Below, one piece after another: positions 1,090-6,924 of a DNA stretch of 6,924 bases (position 1 is the stretch's first letter; the number at the start of each line of letters is the position of its first letter). A program made the position numbers and the translations under genes. Location: IMG/VR virus record IMGVR_UViG_2541047432_000023; one strand, given 5' to 3'. The DNA is from a virus. Its lineage: Duplodnaviria > Heunggongvirae > Uroviricota > Caudoviricetes. The notes under the pieces were generated by a model, which was not told where the DNA came from, did not search any database, and was given only the letters and a program-made list of their open reading frames with translations.

Positions 1090-1119
1090 CATTTTTTACA
1101 ACATACCAAATTTGCATGA

Positions 1120-1148
1120 AGTATATGGCTTTTAATCCAGTTTTGCAA
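1120..1148 (-). promoter_or_regulatory. candidate sigma70 promoter overlapping the 3' end of the Q-like gene (PR'-like late promoter)
   Basis: Minus strand: -35 TTGCAA (1143-1148), 17-nt spacer, -10 TATACT (1120-1125). With the terminator at 1058-1089 this predicts a short (about 50 nt) terminated leader, analogous in layout to lambda PR'/6S RNA/tR'. Hexamers identified by eye only. Confidence 0.3.
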
Positions 1149-1821
1149 TATTTTGCTGTAAAAATGCTGCCTTTTGTTTTGAACGTGTTCTCGTCACAAG
1201 CAATAAAGCATCACTATCAAGCTGTAGAAAAATGTGCTTCATTGCAACCCAGCGTTCAGTAAATGTCTCGGACCAGTTTTTTGTTGTCACTCCCACCAAT
1301 GATGCCAGTGTCTGGTATTCATAGGCCTCACGCCCTGCAAGTTCGCTCTTCACATCCTGTGCAGCCAGCCAGATTAACGTCTTCAGGCGATCCAGTGTCT
1401 TACCTGCAATTTTTCTGTTACTTAACAAATCTTTAAACTCGCTCCATGCCCATTGCGTTATGGTGACCTGATGCCCCCATCGAACGCTTTCGCTGTAACA
1501 CCAAAGCAACCATGCTTTCTGATGTTCATCGAGAGACAAAACCGCGCGGCGCCATGAAGAGGTTGAGAATTCAACCGGGCTGACCAAAGCAATGGATGAA
1601 CCTTTTGCGTACGACTGCTTACCGGAAGTCGGCGTATTATCCAGCGTAATCATCTTGCCAGTTACCACATCCAGAATGCGCGGCTTCTTTCGTTTGTATG
1701 TACCAGTATCAAATTGTGCATGCTCCAGCCAGGCTTCAAGCTGTCCTTTCGTTGCTCCGCTCAAATCAGCGGTAGCCACAATGAGTTGCTCGCGGACATA
1801 CTGTAAATATTGGGTATTCAT
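1132..1821 (-). CDS. putative late-gene antitermination protein (Q-like, non-lambda-Q type)
   Basis: ORF track, 229 aa. The ATG at 1821 overlaps the ylcG stop (ATGA). It sits directly after rusA-ylcG, where lambdoid phages carry Q, and a promoter-plus-terminator pair lies just downstream. The protein has a single Cys, so it cannot carry the Cys-rich zinc motif of lambda Q. Family assignment is by position and recall, not a search. Confidence 0.55.
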   Translation of the reverse strand: MNTQYLQYVREQLIVATADLSGATKGQLEAWLEHAQFDTGTYKRKKPRILDVVTGKMITLDNTPTSGKQSYAKGSSIALVSPVEFSTSSWRRAVLSLDEHQKAWLLWCYSESVRWGHQVTITQWAWSEFKDLLSNRKIAGKTLDRLKTLIWLAAQDVKSELAGREAYEYQTLASLVGVTTKNWSETFTERWVAMKHIFLQLDSDALLLVTRTRSKQKAAFLQQNIAKLD

Positions 1822-1958
1822 GCGGCAGCTCCTTTCAGTGTTTTGGCGTAATTCTTCAGTATCCGGTAATCGGTCAAAACAGAACCAGGAAAACGATATA
1901 AGCGCAGGCGCATCCAGCGGTGGCGAAGACGTTCTGCCATATAAGACTCAAACATCAT
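1818..1958 (-). CDS. ylcG: small YlcG-like phage protein (46 aa)
   Basis: Hand translation of the minus strand gives [46 protein letters not shown]. It is below the ORF-track size cutoff. Its start overlaps the rusA stop (ATGA) and its stop overlaps the Q-like start (ATGA). It resembles the DLP12 YlcG I recall from E. coli K-12. The N-terminal start could instead be the ATG at 1940. Confidence 0.6.
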
Positions 1959-2317
1959 TCATTCCCCAGTTCGGTGATGGTCAGCTCCAGCTTCCCACCT
2001 TTGGTAACGGGCATCTTCACAACACGGTAATCAACGACCTGAGCATCATCCAGCCAGAAACCTGCTTTGGTGAGTGCGTCAAAAGCGGCTTTTTGCAGAT
2101 TATCCAGGTCACGGCGACGGCGATCCGGCATGTGGCACTCAATACGGATTTTCACTGGCATAGCCAGGCCGATATCCAGCATGGAGCCTTTGATGATTCG
2201 GGCGACGTTATCACGGTATGCCTGCCCTTCTGCGCTGATGTGCGTGCGCCCGCGATTATGCCGGTAGTAGCGATTATTGCTCGGAGGCCAGGGTAATGTG
2301 ATGCTGTAGGTATTCAC
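1955..2317 (-). CDS. rusA: crossover junction endodeoxyribonuclease RusA (Holliday junction resolvase)
   Basis: ORF track, 120 aa ([24 protein letters not shown]...[41 protein letters not shown]...). This is near-identical to my recollection of E. coli RusA. GTG start at 2317 overlapping the ybcO stop (GTGA). Confidence 0.93.
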
Positions 2318-2604
2318 GCCTTAATAACCCCCTCTTTCAGCCAGATAACCTGTGTTCTCGCCATACCTTCCAGCGCGCATTCTTTTGCATATGCAGCATC
2401 GACAAAATGTGTGCGGCGGTCGATTTCGTCGTGGCAGGCAGAACATGCAATGGTGGCAATCAAGTCTGGCGGTTTGGTACCGGTGCCGCACAATCCAGTC
2501 AGCCGGATATGTGCCAGTACAGACGTTTCAGGGTTGCCATTACATACGCCAGGGATTCTTACTTGGCATTCCCGACTACGCGCTGCTTTTCTCAAATCAG
2601 CCAT
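2314..2604 (-). CDS. ybcO: YbcO-like Cys/His-rich protein (DUF1364-type putative nuclease)
   Basis: The ORF-track frame 2314..2643 is trimmed to the internal ATG at 2604 ([26 protein letters not shown]...CSACHDEID...), giving 96 aa. That ATG is preceded by GGAGGA and overlaps the ninE stop (ATGGCTGA). Multiple Cys/His residues suggest a metal site. Confidence 0.8.
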
Positions 2605-2767
2605 GATTCCTCCTTGCTGCCAGTCGCAACCATTTTTTATCAACCAGGCTGGCGGTATATCCGAGCAGTGTTGGTATTTCGGATGGCTTCAGCTCAGGTT
2701 TACGCTTACGACGATTTGGTACTTTGTAGATGTGTCCGTTCATGACACGAATAAGCGGTGTAGCCAT
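2597..2767 (-). CDS. ninE: NinE family protein (56 aa)
   Basis: Hand translation of the minus strand gives [56 protein letters not shown]. It is below the ORF-track cutoff. Its ATG overlaps the ybcN stop (TAATG) and its stop overlaps the ybcO start. Matches the NinE of DLP12/lambda nin region as I recall it. Confidence 0.75.
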   Translation of the reverse strand: MATPLIRVMNGHIYKVPNRRKRKPELKPSEIPTLLGYTASLVDKKWLRLAARRNHG

Positions 2768-3222
2768 TACGCCTCCTGCTTGTCACGCAGCAGCTGGAAC
2801 TCGCAGCTCTGTGGAATAGTCAGGTGGCAGCCAATATTCATCGCCCAGGCTTCAACCTTACACAGGAAGACATACATCTCTCCGGTACCAAGATCGGAGG
2901 TATGGCGTAACGACTGGATAGTAGTGATTTCGCCGGTTACGACATCAACCAGGTCCTTGGTTTCATAACCGAGGTATGTGTGTTTGAGAGCATCTTTTAC
3001 CCATGCTGAAGTAGCGAACGATTTCCCCCTGCTGATGAGGTATTCACTGATTTCGCTGTACCACATGTGGCTGAGTGCATTCTGGGAAAGACTGCGTCTC
3101 TCGCGCCACGGTTTAAGCACCATGCGAAAGCATTTGCCGTCTTCCAGATAAGTCTGGATCTGCTGACCGACAGCGGTGAAGTTACCGCGATGTAATTTGA
3201 TGCCATCTTGTGGGAGGTTCAC
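2767..3222 (-). CDS. ybcN: YbcN / NinB-like protein (DNA base-flipping protein family)
   Basis: ORF track, 151 aa ([15 protein letters not shown]...[16 protein letters not shown]...). Matches my recollection of E. coli DLP12 YbcN. GTG start at 3222 preceded by GGAGGTG. Confidence 0.85.
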
Positions 3223-3312
3223 GCTTCACCTCCGCAGAGATCAAACGCTGGATGCAAGACATCGCAGGTGCATTTCTGCATCTGTGACAAGGTAAGGAGT
3301 TCAGATTGTGGT

Positions 3313-3336
3313 CGCATTTAAGTCCCCTTAAATGCG
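3313..3336. repeat. perfect 10-bp inverted repeat (CGCATTTAAG-tccc-CTTAAATGCG), stem-loop B
   Basis: Read directly from the sequence. Arms at 3313-3322 and 3327-3336 are exact reverse complements with a 4-nt loop. No flanking U-tract. Confidence 0.6.
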
Positions 3337-3341
3337 CAGAA

Positions 3342-3370
3342 GTCACCGGAGTTGTTCAAGCTCCGGTGAC
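3342..3370 (-). terminator. perfect 10-bp GC-rich inverted repeat (GTCACCGGAG-9 nt-CTCCGGTGAC), stem-loop A; candidate tR2-like terminator or operator
   Basis: Arms at 3342-3351 and 3361-3370 are exact reverse complements. On the minus-strand RNA the hairpin is followed by UUCUGCGCAUUU, only a partial U-tract. It lies between the island and ybcN, where lambda carries tR2 (position from memory). Confidence 0.3.
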
Positions 3371-3412
3371 ATTATTATGGAAGGTTGATACTAAAAAATC
3401 AAAAATTGAATA

Positions 3413-3604
3413 TCATTGGCGATAGTCTAGCTTGTGATATCCACAAGCTACTTCAATGAAGCGACGAGTAACATTTTGTGTCATCCATGTTTTTTCAGTT
3501 AAGTGCCACACCCAGTTCAAAATTTGCTGATGTGTTGAACATGTACTAAGCGGGATGTTGTATTCATAAGCAACATTGATTCCGCAAAATCGGTGTCGTG
3601 TCAT
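3413..3604 (-). CDS. hypothetical small protein (63 aa), doubtful
   Basis: ORF track only (MTRHRFCGINVAYEYNIPLSTCSTHQQILNWVWHLTEK...). No convincing Shine-Dalgarno upstream of the ATG at 3604 and no recognised family. It occupies the gap between ybcK and the tandem hairpins. Confidence 0.2.
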   Translation of the reverse strand: MTRHRFCGINVAYEYNIPLSTCSTHQQILNWVWHLTEKTWMTQNVTRRFIEVACGYHKLDYRQ

Positions 3605-3723
3605 GACCGATTCACGTTGACCTGCGCCCTGTTGAGTGCCTGGGGATATTCTTGCTCGATAGTTAATATCATAGTAGTTACTTTACTTTCATACCATAGC
3701 ACGGTTGAAAAAGTGATTATTAC

Positions 3724-5250
3724 TCAAAAATAAACCTCACCATCAACCATATATTTGAGAGCACTTATCGCCTGCTGGGCGGATATTACTTTCATTAAAG
3801 GATAGTGTTTAAAAACAATGCCATTCATAAAATAGATATCACAGGTTTTATTATCCGTATTAATTATGATTTTTTCGAATATTTTATAGGCAAGTGTACG
3901 GCATAACTCTCGTCCATTTTTACTGGTTAAGTCAATAGCATAAAAATCACTGAATGAATTTACACCTTTACTCTTCAAAGTTTTCAATGATACCAAAGCT
4001 CTTCGTAATTCCTTATCTAATAGTCTTATTTTCTCTGCTATAGCGGTAACTTCAGGCGCGACAGACAATGCAACGATTAAATTATTAATTTTCATCTGAA
4101 GCTCAATAATTTTTAACTCTAAAGTTTCATTAGCATCTTTCTTGTTTTCAACTGGTTGAATTTTGCTACAATTAAAAAGCAATTCATTAATGATATTATA
4201 ATCAACCAAATCTCTCTTTATTGATGGCCTGTCACATCGATGTAATCTTCTCATCGGACAAACATAATAGCCATGCAAACTTCCAGATACCGCATGAACA
4301 ATCATGGTATTACCACAAGCCTCACACTTCATAACTGTTCGAAGTAGATTTATTAGCATAGGATTCTTGCTACTATTGCTAATACCAAAAGGTGCCAACC
4401 GAATTTCCTGTACAGCGTAAAACAAATCATCTGATATGACTCTGGGATAATAGCCAGCGATTTCACTTATCCCTTTCCCTCTTGCACGATATGAAGGTAC
4501 GCATATACCTATCAGAGCTTTATTCGCTAATAATTTTTCAATTACAGAAGGCCCCCATGCACTTTCTTTTCCTGAGAAATTCTTTACAGCATGATCATTT
4601 AAATACTTGGCTATTGCATTCAATGAGCGCCTTTCCATCCTGAGTTTAAAAATTAGCTCAATAGTTTTCACCCTGTCGGGGTCTGGAACAAAAGCCGTTC
4701 TTTTGTCATCTAAGGAGAGCCATCTCGGACAAGACGCCGTCATAATCGTACCTGATTCCAGTGCATCCTGCCGTTTTTTCTTCCATGATAATTTAACCCG
4801 ACTTGACTTTATCTCGCTTTCTTCATTTGCCCTTTGTGCTATAAGTATGGCTTTTATTAATGAATATGGCTCATTCAAAGAGTCAATATTATAGACTGTA
4901 TTGTCGCAAAGAGTTATAACATCAATACCGTGATTCAAAATCAATTTCAGACGTTCAATCGCTTCACCGACTTTTTCTCTTGAAAGTCTGTCCAGACTTT
5001 CAACTAACAATGTAGTTCCTGGCAATATATAACCATGCTCTATAGCATCTAAAAATTCCGAAAAAGCTCCTGATTGTGCATGCTTTCCTTTGAATGCACT
5101 TAATCCTAAATCTTCATATGTTATGGTATCAAGATAATAATCACTATTTACCTTTAACCATTCAGCAATAAGTCTTCTCTGTCGGTTTAATGAGTCGCCA
5201 GACATCTGACCTGGTGATGAAAATCGCATATATGCTATGGCTTTTTTCAT
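3724..5250 (-). CDS. ybcK: large serine recombinase (resolvase/invertase catalytic domain + recombinase domain + zinc ribbon), YbcK-like
   Basis: ORF track, 508 aa. N-terminal serine-recombinase motifs: AIAYMRFSSPGQ (catalytic Ser region), SLNRQ and ESLDRLSRE. Cys-rich zinc ribbon further on (CEACGNTMIVHAVSGSLHGYYVCPMRRLHRCD). Coiled-coil-like C-terminal region. SD AGGTG 6 nt before the ATG at 5250. Strongly AT-rich. Resembles DLP12 YbcK as I recall it. Confidence 0.85.
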   Translation of the reverse strand: MKKAIAYMRFSSPGQMSGDSLNRQRRLIAEWLKVNSDYYLDTITYEDLGLSAFKGKHAQSGAFSEFLDAIEHGYILPGTTLLVESLDRLSREKVGEAIERLKLILNHGIDVITLCDNTVYNIDSLNEPYSLIKAILIAQRANEESEIKSSRVKLSWKKKRQDALESGTIMTASCPRWLSLDDKRTAFVPDPDRVKTIELIFKLRMERRSLNAIAKYLNDHAVKNFSGKESAWGPSVIEKLLANKALIGICVPSYRARGKGISEIAGYYPRVISDDLFYAVQEIRLAPFGISNSSKNPMLINLLRTVMKCEACGNTMIVHAVSGSLHGYYVCPMRRLHRCDRPSIKRDLVDYNIINELLFNCSKIQPVENKKDANETLELKIIELQMKINNLIVALSVAPEVTAIAEKIRLLDKELRRALVSLKTLKSKGVNSFSDFYAIDLTSKNGRELCRTLAYKIFEKIIINTDNKTCDIYFMNGIVFKHYPLMKVISAQQAISALKYMVDGEVYF

Positions 5251-5494
5251 GGTGACACCTGCTAACTTATGCTTTTATAAACCTTAGTGGTGAGATATAA
5301 TTTTTGTTTAATTTTTATTTAAAAAGACAATTACGATCACACTATCTTGAATATACAACAATAATCGTATTGCAATTTGCTTACGCAATAATCTTGAAGG
5401 CACAAAAGAATACACAAAAACTAAAAACATTAACAAAAGCGGCCCATGTAAAGATATGAACCGCCATATTGCAGTCTTTTAAAAGAAATTATTT

Positions 5495-5827
5495 TTAATG
5501 TGGTGTGCTTCGTGACAATAAATTAATAACCAACACACCGGCACAAATCAACATCATGCCTATAACGGCTGGCAGGTCCAGCCGTTGGCCGAAAAACCCC
5601 CATGATAGTAAGCTAATCAGGACAATACCGACTCCTGACCAGATAGCATAAGCAATCCCTGTAGGAATATAAGCCAGCGTCTGAGCTAATAACCAGAATG
5701 ATGCACAATAACAAATAATTGTACCAACAGATGGCCATAACCGTGTAAAACCTTCTGAAAACTTCATTAAGGTTGTACCAATGACCTCTGCAAGTATTGC
5801 ACCACCAAGATAAATATAAGGGTTCAT
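5495..5827 (-). CDS. emrE: small multidrug resistance (SMR) family efflux transporter EmrE
   Basis: The ORF-track frame 5495..5881 contains MNPYIYLGGAILAEVIGTTLMKFSEGFTRLWPSVGTIICYCASFWLLAQTLAYIPTGIAYAIWSGVGIVLISLLSWGFFGQRLDLPAVIGMMLICAGVLVINLLSRSTPH, 110 aa from the internal ATG at 5827. That ATG is preceded by AGGAAAG. Near-identical to my recollection of E. coli EmrE, which is known to lie in the DLP12 prophage. Confidence 0.93.
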   Translation of the reverse strand: MNPYIYLGGAILAEVIGTTLMKFSEGFTRLWPSVGTIICYCASFWLLAQTLAYIPTGIAYAIWSGVGIVLISLLSWGFFGQRLDLPAVIGMMLICAGVLVINLLSRSTPH

Positions 5828-5842
5828 AACATATTCTTTCCT

Positions 5843-5877
5843 GTTCAAACTGGAGAGAATTGTACTACAGTTTGAAC
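5843..5877. promoter_or_regulatory. perfect 10-bp inverted repeat (GTTCAAACTG-15 nt-CAGTTTGAAC) just upstream of emrE; candidate operator or 5'-UTR structure
   Basis: Read directly from the sequence. Arms at 5843-5852 and 5868-5877 are exact reverse complements. It lies in the 67-bp gap between the ren stop and the emrE start. Confidence 0.4.
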
Positions 5878-5894
5878 TCAACTCACCTGTTTCA

Positions 5895-6197
5895 TCATTG
5901 TGTACCCATTGATGTTCTTTTATATACCCTCAATACCCGTTTCATCGCGGCACTCTGGCGACACTCCTTAAAAATCAGATTCGTGCTCACCTTTCCTTCC
6001 CGTTCTTCTCTGGTAGCGAACCGGTAATACACCGTTCGCCAGACCTTACCATCAACGACCAGGATTCCTGCCCGCGCCATTTTAGCCGCAGCCTGATTTA
6101 TGCTGGTTACGGTTGCACCTGTTACCGCGGCAACGTCCTGTGCACAGAAGCTCTTATGCGTCCCCAGGTAATGAATAATTGCCTCTTTGCCCGTCAT
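5895..6197 (-). CDS. ren: Ren protein (lambda Ren homologue, relief from Rex exclusion)
   Basis: ORF track, 100 aa (MTGKEAIIHYLGTHKSFCAQDVAAVTGATVTSINQAAAKMARAGILVVDGKVWRTVYYRFATREEREGK...). Closely matches lambda Ren as I recall it, except the last ~10 residues. The ATG at 6197 overlaps the P stop (ATGA). Confidence 0.85.
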   Translation of the reverse strand: MTGKEAIIHYLGTHKSFCAQDVAAVTGATVTSINQAAAKMARAGILVVDGKVWRTVYYRFATREEREGKVSTNLIFKECRQSAAMKRVLRVYKRTSMGTQ

Positions 6198-6895
6198 ACA
6201 CTTGCTCCTTTCAGTCCGAACTTAGCTTTAATTTCTGCGATCTTCGCCAGAGCCTGTGCACGATTTAGAGGTCTACCGCCCATAACAGGAAGTTGTTTTA
6301 CTGGTTCAGGTATCGTCTCACCACGGTTAATTCGCGCTGTCATACAGGTCAGTTCATCGGCAGCCTTGCGCCGTAATTCCGCGTCAGTCAGCGCATTGGC
6401 CCGCATGTTCTGGTACAAGTTGGTAACCAACCAGTAATGCGCGTTCGATTTCCACGGATAAGACTCTGCATCCGGATACAGGCCACGCTTCCTGCAATAC
6501 TCGTAAACCATATCAACCAGCTCGCTGACGTTTGGCAGTCCGGCGATAACGGATGCTTCTTCCCGGCACCATGCAACAAACTGCCCGGGTGATGGAAGAA
6601 ATGGTCGATTCTGCCGACGGGCTACGCGCATTCCTGCGTTAACCTGTTCCATCGAGGTGATCCCGTTTTCCCGGAAAGCCAGAACCCACTGGCGGCGGAT
6701 TTCGTTCAGTTCGTTCTGGTCACGGTTAGCCAGACTCGCCGGGAAAGTTGCCAGTAACTGGCTGAACACACCGTTGATGATCTGCGCTACCTGCTGTACC
6801 TGCGGCTTTTCGTCGTACTGTTCCGGCATGTTGTTGGCGATCCGACGCATCTGCTCACGGTCAAAGTTAACCATCTGTGCGGCGATGTTTTTCAT
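6194..6895 (-). CDS. P: replication protein P (lambda P, DnaB helicase loader)
   Basis: ORF track, 233 aa (MKNIAAQMVNFDREQMRRIANNMPEQYDEKPQVQQVAQIINGVFSQLLATFPASLANRDQNELNEIRRQWVLAFRENGIT...). Near-identical to lambda P as I recall it, and the same length. Confidence 0.95.
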   Translation of the reverse strand: MKNIAAQMVNFDREQMRRIANNMPEQYDEKPQVQQVAQIINGVFSQLLATFPASLANRDQNELNEIRRQWVLAFRENGITSMEQVNAGMRVARRQNRPFLPSPGQFVAWCREEASVIAGLPNVSELVDMVYEYCRKRGLYPDAESYPWKSNAHYWLVTNLYQNMRANALTDAELRRKAADELTCMTARINRGETIPEPVKQLPVMGGRPLNRAQALAKIAEIKAKFGLKGASV

Positions 6896-6924
6896 AAATC
6901 CACCCCGTAAATCCAGTCAGTGTT
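6892..6924 (-). CDS. O: replication initiator protein O, C-terminal fragment (continues beyond window)
   Basis: The minus-strand frame is open to the window edge and translates ...NTDWIYGVDL-stop. Its TGA overlaps the P start (ATGA). The position upstream of P matches lambdoid O-P organisation. Only about 10 codons are visible. Confidence 0.5.
   Translation of the reverse strand, partial: NTDWIYGVDL

Follow-up and report, generated by a model that had tools for sequence, protein, structure and literature searches.

YbcK, a predicted large serine recombinase of lambdoid prophages, and a candidate integration site at the 3' end of emrE

The ybcK locus and its prophage setting

The DNA analysed here (the window) is a stretch of 6,924 nucleotides, in which the drug pump gene emrE is followed on the same strand by a leader region, the recombinase gene ybcK and a short variable region; the features are listed in Table 1. 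The open reading frame of ybcK, singled out in a preliminary description as an orphan large serine recombinase, is real and intact. Its product is 97-99.6% identical to the YbcK proteins of Escherichia coli K-12, O157 and phages, and it is the orthologue of K-12 YbcK (b0544, P77698), annotated as a 'putative recombinase' of the DLP12 prophage, with three non-synonymous differences between the two alleles. The gene is thus a known one (PMC5426353), annotated in K-12 but uncharacterised, and the new part is a testable prediction of its substrate. The position of ybcK after emrE is the same in K-12, where ybcL and ybcM lie downstream, whereas the window has a deletion-derived remnant of 501 bp there.

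Table 1. Coordinates of the features of the ybcK locus in the window
Feature	Position	Strand	Basis or remark
12-bp-stem palindrome, start of conserved nin backbone (ylcH/ybcN side)	3342..3370	.	
Deletion-derived remnant of antirepressor (P22AR)-type region, 63-aa ORF at 3413-3604	3380..3657	-	
66-bp 3' flank of ybcK, common to Perceval- and Turner-type phages	3658..3723	-	BLAST breakpoints, alignment
ybcK, intact ORF, 508 aa, predicted large serine recombinase	3724..5250	-	
Predicted antiparallel coiled-coil motif (residues 373-427)	3970..4134	-	AlphaFold helices 373-397 and 402-427; profile alignment
Zinc-ribbon domain (residues 302-357; C309, C312, C331, C339)	4180..4347	-	Pfam PF13408
Recombinase domain (residues 191-284)	4399..4680	-	Pfam PF07508; aligns to SprA and A118 recombinase domains
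N-terminal resolvase-type catalytic domain and long helix E (residues 1-165)	4756..5250	-	Pfam PF00239, residues 4-161
ybcK 5' leader with small ylcJ-like ORF (5308-5436)	5251..5470	-	ylcJ annotated here in K-12; Pfam YlcJ
Terminator-like hairpin, ends emrE transcript, inside inserted segment	5438..5465	-	
Candidate left junction (attL-like) CACCACATTAAAAATAATTTCTTTTAAAAGACTGC	5471..5505	-	15-bp core CATTAAAAATAATTT at 5486-5500
emrE, 110-aa SMR efflux pump; proposed target gene	5495..5827	-	Pfam PF00893

Within a DLP12-like lambdoid prophage, the locus fills the accessory slot between ren and ninB. In all 78 related IMG/VR loci emrE lies directly upstream of ybcK, at a spacing of 244-257 bp, and the order and orientation ren-emrE-ybcK-...-ybcN are constant, contiguous and internal to the prophage. 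In the complete genomes inspected the prophage ends carry genes for a tyrosine integrase and Xis, and ybcK is not at an end. The collinear prophage of O157:H7 has its tyrosine integrase and excisionase genes adjoining icd, and the viable phage Perceval encodes Int and Xis alongside YbcK, in agreement with the earlier proposal that ybcK is internal to a prophage whose integrase lies elsewhere. The observation that no directionality factor adjoins the gene also stands, none being recognisable; the only small ORF in the ybcK segment is ylcJ, which codes for a hydrophobic product and is frameshifted in some loci, and the 2-kb segment contains no other recombinase gene.

Literature searches on the function of ybcK yielded one study of Rho terminators, one of sabinene tolerance and some lists, and no published function was found. 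YbcK is among 16 site-specific recombinases listed for K-12, and excision of the H47 island was unaffected by deletion of its gene (PMC5426353). A Rho/NusG-dependent terminator has been reported in the K-12 leader, where Rho normally silences ybcK (PMC4150792), and in the window, too, Rho probably allows hardly any expression of the gene.

Domain organisation and constraint on YbcK

Pfam searches of YbcK matched the Resolvase (E 5e-19), Recombinase (2e-14) and Zn_ribbon_recom (8e-8) families, the last of which corresponds to the zinc ribbon noted previously. The two catalytic motifs quoted earlier are present as well, YMRFSSPGQ at residues 7-15 and DRLSR at residues 87-91; they provide R9 (codon 5224-5226), the nucleophile S11 (codon 5218-5220) and the D87-R88-x-x-R91 signature. 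The segment VESLDRLSRE aligns to VKKLDRLGRD of the gamma-delta resolvase. In alignments of 37 and of 21 homologues, R9, S11, Q15, D87, R88, S90 and R91 are invariant, as are the four zinc cysteines. Single-sequence phmmer searches of PDB sequences with YbcK or its N-terminal domain gave nothing useful, and matches were obtained with a family profile instead. This profile matched the solved large serine recombinases SPbeta YokA/SprA, A118, TP901-1, phiC31 and Bxb1, and its alignment extends across the coiled coils of both SprA and A118. The AlphaFold model of YbcK likewise gave full-length fold matches to SPbeta-type, A118, TP901-1, phiC31 and Bxb1 integrases. On these sequence and model comparisons, YbcK is a complete large serine recombinase with catalytic, recombinase, zinc-ribbon and coiled-coil parts.

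One function previously suggested is the inversion of a DNA segment. YbcK belongs to the serine recombinase superfamily, with a weak secondary match to PHROG 125 (DNA invertase), and its homologues often lie beside tail-fibre genes, as would suit an invertase. However, a protein of 508 aa with large-type recombinase and zinc-ribbon domains differs from the small helix-turn-helix architecture of Pin, Gin and Hin (about 190 aa), both orientations of a segment were never seen among the 78 loci of constant gene order, and no duplicated or inverted tail-fibre cassettes were found near the homologues. A search of the window for direct and inverted repeats returned only short repeats at chance level, with no convincing inverted pair. 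The idea that YbcK is an invertase is thus hardly credible.

The ybcK ORF is intact in 83 of 84 alleles, and the two main alleles differ with a dN/dS of about 0.07, indicating purifying selection. On this measure YbcK, which keeps all catalytic and zinc residues, is probably still a working protein, in line with the earlier suggestion that it may be active; present-day activity is presumed. Purifying selection is also seen in loci that lack the right-hand junction described below (attR), in which 77 synonymous and 43 non-synonymous variants of ybcK were counted, and this hints at another or additional role.

A co-opted function had also been raised. YbcK would then benefit the host or the phage without local recombination, for example by binding DNA as a regulator or by contributing to stress tolerance, and it might influence emrE expression via a site overlapping the emrE stop codon and terminator. 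Beside the selection that continues where attR is lost, such a role would suit the retention of ybcK in viable phages and the phenotype of BL21(DE3), in which sabinene tolerance rises on over-expression of ybcK and falls on its deletion (PMC7181518). A pure DNA binder, however, would not need the catalytic residues, all of which are invariant in the family; the K-12 gene is normally silent; several O157:H7 lineages carry a copy of ybcK interrupted by IS1203 and show no obvious effect of it; and YbcK matched no family of the PADLOC defence models at E <= 0.01. Co-option in place of recombination is therefore considered improbable.

A repeat-bounded segment and candidate attachment sites

Perceval-type phages, and likewise 172 E. 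coli genomes, carry ybcK on a segment of 2,073 bp with the 15-bp direct repeat CATTAAAAATAATTT on both sides, in two identical copies. The repeat begins at the last emrE codon (CAT) and runs on into the stop codon (TAA). When extended, the two repeat copies of the Perceval type are identical at 27 of 32 positions, and no exact 15-bp repeat arose in 2000 shuffles. A synthetic query representing the excised junction found an end-to-end, single-piece match at 98.9% in two E. coli genomes. The phage L185 has the same phage backbone, with emrE facing a hydrolase gene and a single copy of the core; ybcK is absent and emrE retained. Two genomes with this arrangement look like carriers of a natural empty site, the 172 genomes having the occupied form. 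Both flanks differ by about 3% between empty and occupied phages, so the insertion or loss was not recent. Comparison of K-12 with the chromosomal emrE-ybcL-ybcM islet shows a clean indel of 2083 bp beginning 8 bp after the emrE stop codon; the right junction of the K-12 type is without a clean core copy.

Candidate attachment sites were obtained from the sister phages. The candidate attB, CACCACATTAAAAATAATTTCTTTTGAATCGAGTG, spans the emrE stop codon; a stretch of attB is also given as ...GTCACGAAGCACACCACATTAAAAATAATTTCTTTTGAATCGAGTGAAATAGG.... The candidate attP, reconstructed from phages such as Perceval and 4A7, reads ...GGTCACGCCCCCATTAAAAATAATTTATTTTTAAACGACT..., a stretch also given as ...GAGAGGCTGGTCACGCCCCCATTAAAAATAATTTATTTTTAAACGACTAAAATATGGAGG..., and holds a perfect 10-bp inverted repeat, TTAAAAATAA-T-TTATTTTTAA. 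Exact-pattern scans of IMG/VR and of JGI metagenomes for the circular attP junction returned no match. The four half-sites are mutually similar, the 25 bp after the core being more alike than shuffles (p ~0.001). Likeness in this part could also reflect shared ancestry of the emrE 3' flanks. An identical core of 15-20 bp is long for a serine integrase; similarly long common cores occur in SPbeta and SCCmec.

The window itself keeps the left end only. It contains one exact copy of the core and no convincing second copy, and attR, expected within the antirepressor-type remnant, is absent there. The 501-bp spacer of the window corresponds to the 1395-bp spacer of the L045 type minus two deletions, and at least 10 length variants of the region 3' of ybcK were found among the loci. 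A possible origin of this variable DNA as captured cassettes was rejected, the variants being related by deletions, IS insertion and exchange within the shared antirepressor remnant. With its right junction lost, the element would be immobilised in the window. The earlier statement that no att-like repeat pair flanks the gene is thus correct for the window and does not hold for related phages, in which such a pair flanks ybcK. Similarly, the label of an orphan without recognisable substrate was half right, since candidate attL, attR and attB sites exist in the sister phages and the right-hand one is missing here.

The repeat could also have arisen when two phages crossed over, unequally or illegitimately, because the emrE stop codon is a mosaic boundary in arrangements that lack ybcK too (the hydrolase and ybcL islet types). 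On this serious rival account, which we regard as somewhat unlikely, ybcK is a passenger 'moron' with its own leader and terminator, brought in by illegitimate or homologous recombination of lambdoid phages; the 15-bp repeat of Perceval-type phages is the scar left after an emrE-ybcK phage had crossed over unequally with one of the emrE-hydrolase type, and YbcK is inactive on the adjacent DNA, its real sites, if any, lying elsewhere. Ordinary deletions, IS insertions and remnant exchange suffice to explain the downstream length variants, homologues of ybcK occupy classic moron slots (the nin region and the tail-fibre end), and the partial gene duplicates flanking some of them (P/P', DUF1367'/DUF1367) are typical recombination scars. 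Yet the crossover would have to coincide, to a few bases, with the very position at which the emrE flanks diverge, an exact 15-bp repeat is not expected by chance, and blocks consisting of the recombinase gene only, found in several lineages, are most simply explained if the recombinase moves itself. Flanking gene duplications like those of loci L101, L122 and L013 were not found in the E. coli loci, except for the short Perceval repeat.

A possible mini-element at emrE and its relatives

The reading favoured here, with moderate confidence, makes YbcK the integrase of a minimal integrative element whose target is the 3' end of emrE. The element would be a low-GC unit of about 2.1 kb, comprising the leader with ylcJ, ybcK and a short remnant of an antirepressor gene, and inserted site-specifically inside the ren-ninB slot of DLP12-like lambdoid phages. 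The standard serine-integrase mechanism is assumed: YbcK dimers would bind two imperfectly palindromic sites, Ser11 would cut all four strands around the central base pair step, and the half-sites would rotate and rejoin, converting attP and attB into attL and attR, with a directionality factor needed for the reverse reaction. YbcK would have made the junctions seen in the sister phages, in an event presumed to be an insertion. In the window, the attR side would have disappeared as the antirepressor remnant downstream recombined and suffered deletions, leaving a grounded element that rides passively on the prophage. The emrE gene looks like the target and not the cargo, since the repeat-bounded segment begins only at the emrE stop codon, leaving the gene outside, and the phage with the empty site keeps it. 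This speaks against the earlier proposal that YbcK mobilises an emrE cassette.

Among known systems, the SPbeta recombinase SprA/YokA (PDB 9dxd, 9dxh) and the Listeria A118/LI integrase (4kis) share the four-part architecture and gave the best profile and fold matches, although their identity to YbcK is only about 18%. They integrate whole phages, whereas YbcK resides in a phage with its own tyrosine integrase and its apparent unit is about 2 kb. The SPbeta system has a long common core and requires a small directionality factor. The large serine recombinases CcrAB and CcrC of SCCmec insert their elements at the extreme 3' end of rlmH/orfX, leaving the ORF intact and producing direct repeats of about 15 bp. 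This is the geometry proposed for the YbcK element at emrE; SCC elements are 20-60 kb long, carry cargo and have a different host range. TnpX (Tn4451) and TndX (Tn5397) are encoded, as proposed for YbcK, by the element that they move, which is excised as a circular form. Elements of this type insert at many targets that share a GA dinucleotide, whereas the ybcK segment of E. coli occupies a single site (78 loci).

Relatives of YbcK with 40-66% identity form blocks of nearly a single gene in accessory slots of other prophages. Homologues occur in the nin region (E. coli, Atlantibacter, Pantoea dispersa, Ca. Pantoea alvi) and at the tail-fibre end (Atlantibacter, Yersinia, Erwinia, Ewingella). 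Contexts thus differ across genera, and in E. coli there is the single site directly after emrE. Loci L112 and L122 have 1.8 kb in common at 94% identity in unrelated contexts, a pattern repeated in L006/L101 and L104/L117, and some blocks lie between diverged copies of a duplicated neighbouring gene. Outside the 94% block of L112 and L122 the similarity of target sites is weak, at most 40% identity, and no convincing short direct repeats flank the homologues in six loci from other genera. Adjacency to tRNA or tmRNA genes among the homologues was limited to L006, near ssrA.

Homologues of Atlantibacter, Erwinia and Ewingella that lie at a prophage end beside host genes (ssrA, lepA) raise the question of whether YbcK is a second integrase of the whole phage, giving the lambdoid genome an alternative bacterial site. 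A related recombinase, cluster10915 of Durrant et al. 2022, has been published with an attB/attP pair sharing a 26-bp terminator core (PMC10083194, suppl. file 3). Its representative is 66% identical to YbcK over 399 aa and 99% identical to homologue P0005, which is situated in a lambdoid nin region, as ybcK is. However, the 26-bp core is absent from the window and from every locus compared, including the near-identical L186-188, and therefore the published pair may describe the surrounding prophage. Given also the internal position of ybcK in every E. coli-type locus and complete genome inspected, with the tyrosine integrase at the ends, a role as second integrase is very improbable.

The distribution of the relatives also allows a wider and more speculative version of the mini-element reading, offered here as unlikely but conceivable. 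The YbcK family would consist of autonomous, essentially single-gene elements of about 1.8-2.1 kb, with the economy of insertion sequences, which move from one accessory slot to another in temperate phages and mobilisable islands of Enterobacterales, integrate within genes or at their 3' ends while bringing a replacement fragment, and then hitch-hike with the host element. If this were true, E. coli lambdoid phages would provide, in their emrE-3' site, the first example whose attB and attP can be defined.

The ybcK gene is among the remaining genes of E. coli K-12 with no known function, and its product is the sole large serine recombinase among the 16 site-specific recombinases of this strain. 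The present analysis gives it a concrete predicted substrate, with attB across the emrE stop codon and attP reconstructable from Perceval or 4A7. Should this prediction fail, YbcK would be a conserved recombinase without a known site, needing a separate explanation. If it is correct, E. coli would have a native, new orthogonal integrase and att pair for genome engineering, a mobile element nested within temperate phages would be documented, and emrE, a widely studied drug pump gene, would be the landing site of that nested element.

Gene order and variation around emrE-ybcK

Every long open reading frame (ORF) of the window lies on the minus strand, and jointly they form a lambdoid prophage's early-right/nin region, with a GC content of about 50% in the backbone and 29-40% over emrE-ybcK. 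The best E. coli matches, prophages of O157:H7, are 98.9% identical across window 1099-6924, and in them the ybcK ORF is annotated as 'ybcK: recombinase family protein'; K-12 carries it as b0544, in its cryptic prophage DLP12. Since these matches end at position 1099, the region 1-1098 represents a different late-region moron. The 252-aa multi-pass membrane protein encoded there, downstream of Q (GC 34-40%), has a match in PHROG 1521 (function unknown) and none in Pfam, NCBIfam or PADLOC.

Features of the window and of the compared loci (L-numbers)
Sequence	Feature	Position	Strand
Window	Unknown membrane protein	205-963	minus
Window	Antiterminator Q	1132-1821	minus
Window	NinE, YbcO, RusA, YlcG (nin-region members)		minus
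Window	YbcN, NinB-like	2767-3222	minus
Window	Palindrome, 12-bp stem	3342-3370	
Window	63-aa ORF	3413-3604	minus
Window	YbcK, 508-aa ORF	3724-5250	minus
Window	Left junction (core 5486-5500)	5471-5505	
Window	EmrE	5495-5827	minus
Window	Ren	5895-6197	minus
Window	Replication protein P	6194-6895	minus
L015, E. coli chromosome	emrE islet between fliE and yedK	8001-10450	
L016, E. coli chromosome	emrE islet between fliE and yedK	8001-10131	
L006, Atlantibacter	Conserved gene pair	9092-9684	
L102, Ewingella	Conserved gene pair	9212-9845	
L011, Erwinia	Conserved gene pair	12207-12772	
L108-L110	Conserved gene pair		
L009, Yersinia	tRNA-Leu-like 3' fragment	about 11720-11790	
L013, Citrobacter	7-bp tandem repeat	about 9700-9805	
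L013, Citrobacter	Diverged copies, 5' part of pilV/shufflon-like gene	8986-9689 and 12943-13561	
L101, Atlantibacter-type phage	SIR2_2-domain gene	5755-7695	

The backbone around emrE-ybcK is always ren...ybcN in the 78 IMG/VR loci, and emrE precedes ybcK by 244-257 bp in all 78 of those with upstream sequence. The distance from ybcK to ybcN falls into at least 10 length classes, the shortest 501 bp and the longest 3373 bp, linked by deletions, an IS insertion and exchange within a shared remnant of a gene for a P22-antirepressor C-terminal domain. The content downstream of ybcK is ybcL-ybcM in the K-12 type and an alpha/beta hydrolase gene in the Perceval type, while the 501-bp spacer of the window is the L045-type spacer minus two deletions. 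Capture of cassettes downstream of ybcK was therefore rejected, the variation being ordinary phage mosaicism. The 63-aa ORF in the deletion-derived spacer of the window belongs to PHROG 2559 (unknown function) and is weakly similar to P22 antirepressor C-terminal domain proteins at that position in sister phages. In all variants, and also in a chromosomal islet, the palindrome (GTCACCGGAG...CTCCGGTGAC) sits at the invariable beginning of the nin backbone; it resembles a plus-strand terminator, although the genes are on the minus strand.

This islet, fliE/emrE-ybcL-ybcM/IS200, occurs in most complete E. coli genomes, so that emrE is not prophage-borne in most strains. It adjoins IS200/TnpB remnants and shares about 91% identity with the copy in DLP12. 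Its content is exactly that of the DLP12 slot from the ren stop to the ybcN start, minus ybcK; relative to the islet, K-12 has a clean 2083-bp insertion starting 8 bp past the emrE stop codon.

The recombinase and its maintenance

The preliminary description had identified a large serine recombinase with catalytic motifs and a zinc ribbon, which proved correct on the evidence of domains, invariant residues, and profile and model matches. Pfam assigns Resolvase, Recombinase and Zn_ribbon_recom domains. The proposed check of the catalytic serine and arginines found S11, R9, R88 and R91 kept throughout alignments of 37 and 21 homologues, where Q15, D87, S90 and the cysteines C309, C312, C331 and C339 are likewise invariant. 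YMRFSS corresponds by eye to YARVST of gamma-delta resolvase, and hhalign pairs VESLDRLSRE with VKKLDRLGRD of that enzyme. The family profile matches the solved serine integrases of SPbeta, A118, TP901-1, phiC31 and Bxb1, as does the AlphaFold model (mean pLDDT 77) over its full length; two long antiparallel helices in this model are predicted to form the coiled-coil motif.

Judged from its alleles, ybcK is a maintained gene: 83 of 84 are intact, the two main allele groups differ by 39-40 synonymous and 11-12 non-synonymous changes (dN/dS about 0.07), and loci without the right-hand repeat described below hold 77 synonymous against 43 non-synonymous variants. In O157:H7 genomes H2-H11, IS1203 lies inside ybcK in several lineages, leaving two 'recombinase family protein' fragments, and the gene is thus dispensable for the host. 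Twelve isolated lambdoid phage records contain ybcK; Perceval, a complete lambdoid genome, has it together with a tyrosine integrase and excisionase, and a role for YbcK as a second phage integrase is one of the less likely explanations.

Published lists give ybcK as a predicted recombinase, and its deletion left excision of the H47 island unaffected (PMC5426353). A Rho/NusG-dependent terminator lies in its leader (PMC4150792), and BL21 over-expressing the gene tolerated sabinene better (PMC7181518). The literature search found no paper assigning a substrate to YbcK. A co-opted function of this protein, with its catalytic residues retained, is also less likely.

Homologues in other Enterobacterales

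Homologues 40-66% identical to YbcK occur in three kinds of context. They are found within the nin region of a lambdoid prophage in Atlantibacter and metagenomic loci (L101, L107, L186), Pantoea dispersa (L104, with a tyrosine integrase visible at its prophage end) and Ca. Pantoea alvi (L122); at prophage ends, after tail-fibre/assembly genes and adjoining host DNA, in Atlantibacter (L006, 540 bp from ssrA), Yersinia (L009), Erwinia (L011, near lepA) and Ewingella (L102, L109, L110); and, for one homologue, in a mobilisable island of Citrobacter (L013). Related pairs in unrelated contexts have little in common beyond the recombinase gene: a 94%-identical block of 1.8 kb common to L112 and L122 runs from -222 to about +60, that of L006 and L101 begins at -68 and ends 75 bp short of the stop, and that of L104 and L117 extends from -32 to the stop. 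Such nearly gene-only blocks fit a small self-moving unit, and moron-like shuffling would fit them also. On both sides of the recombinase module, L122, L101 and L013 have diverged copies, in direct orientation, of part of an adjacent gene (P, DUF1367 and a pilV-like gene, respectively); precise ends or target similarity could not be defined in the lineages outside E. coli.

The representative of cluster10915, for which an attB/attP pair with a common 26-bp terminator core has been published (Durrant et al. 2022), shares 99% identity with homologue P0005 and 66% with YbcK. This core is absent from the window and all compared loci, including near-identical nin-region ones, and may be the site of the surrounding prophage.

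Beside the tail-end homologues lies a conserved gene pair, one member encoding 80 aa and the other 115-130 aa that include a Peptidase_S24-like domain; this pair could be a partner or regulator, perhaps a candidate directionality factor, and is absent from the E. coli locus. In L013 the tandem repeat, (CTTGTTT)n, is just upstream of the recombinase gene. The tRNA-Leu-like fragment of L009 (...GGGTTCAAGTCCCGCCCCGGGCACCA), which lies downstream of the homologue by about 190 bp, on the boundary to a P2-like prophage remnant, is probably the attachment-site duplicate of a neighbouring tyrosine-integrase prophage. The SIR2_2-domain gene of L101, in the same nin-region slot as the recombinase, is likely an anti-phage defence gene.

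Repeat pair, empty site and origin of the ybcK segment

Self-comparison of the flanks revealed a direct repeat, CATTAAAAATAATTT, on either side of ybcK in Perceval-type phages. Copy 1 starts at the last emrE codon (CAT TAA) and copy 2 lies 2073 bp on, 283 bp past the ybcK stop; extended, the copies are identical at 27 of 32 positions. None of 2000 trials with shuffled flank pairs gave a 15-bp repeat, and over the 25 bp past the core the copies are more similar than shuffles (p about 0.001). An invertase role for YbcK is among the less likely readings.

When the junction expected after precise loss of the ybcK segment was searched for in 5,426 complete genomes, two gave an unbroken match over its whole length (98.9% identity); the occupied right junction was found in 172. 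One of the two, L185, has the same phage backbone of O, P, ren, emrE, a converging hydrolase gene, ylcH and ybcN, with a single core copy and no ybcK. The idea that YbcK mobilises the emrE cassette is not supported here, since both this empty site and the ybcK-less islet still have emrE, which looks like a neighbour and not cargo.

The empty site, CACCACATTAAAAATAATTTCTTTTGAATCGAGTG, is an imperfect palindrome (12 of 17 positions complementary, counted manually), the reconstructed element-borne site contains a perfect inverted repeat, TTAAAAATAA-T-TTATTTTTAA, and the four candidate half-sites are mutually alike. The candidate left junction of the window is identical to the empty site over 20 bp; a second core copy was not found in the window.

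In both flanks the identity between empty and occupied phages is about 97%, so that the indel separating them is simple but old. The main rival account, which we regard as rather unlikely, is that unequal recombination where two modules meet produced both repeat and indel, and that YbcK is a conserved passenger whose sites, if any, lie elsewhere. In the most likely account, to which we give an even chance, YbcK is instead the integrase of a minimal element, which would have landed at the emrE 3' end in the ancestor of these lambdoid phages. The Perceval lineage would then have kept both junctions, and the lineage of the window would have lost the right one, leaving a recombinase that is intact but locally substrate-less.
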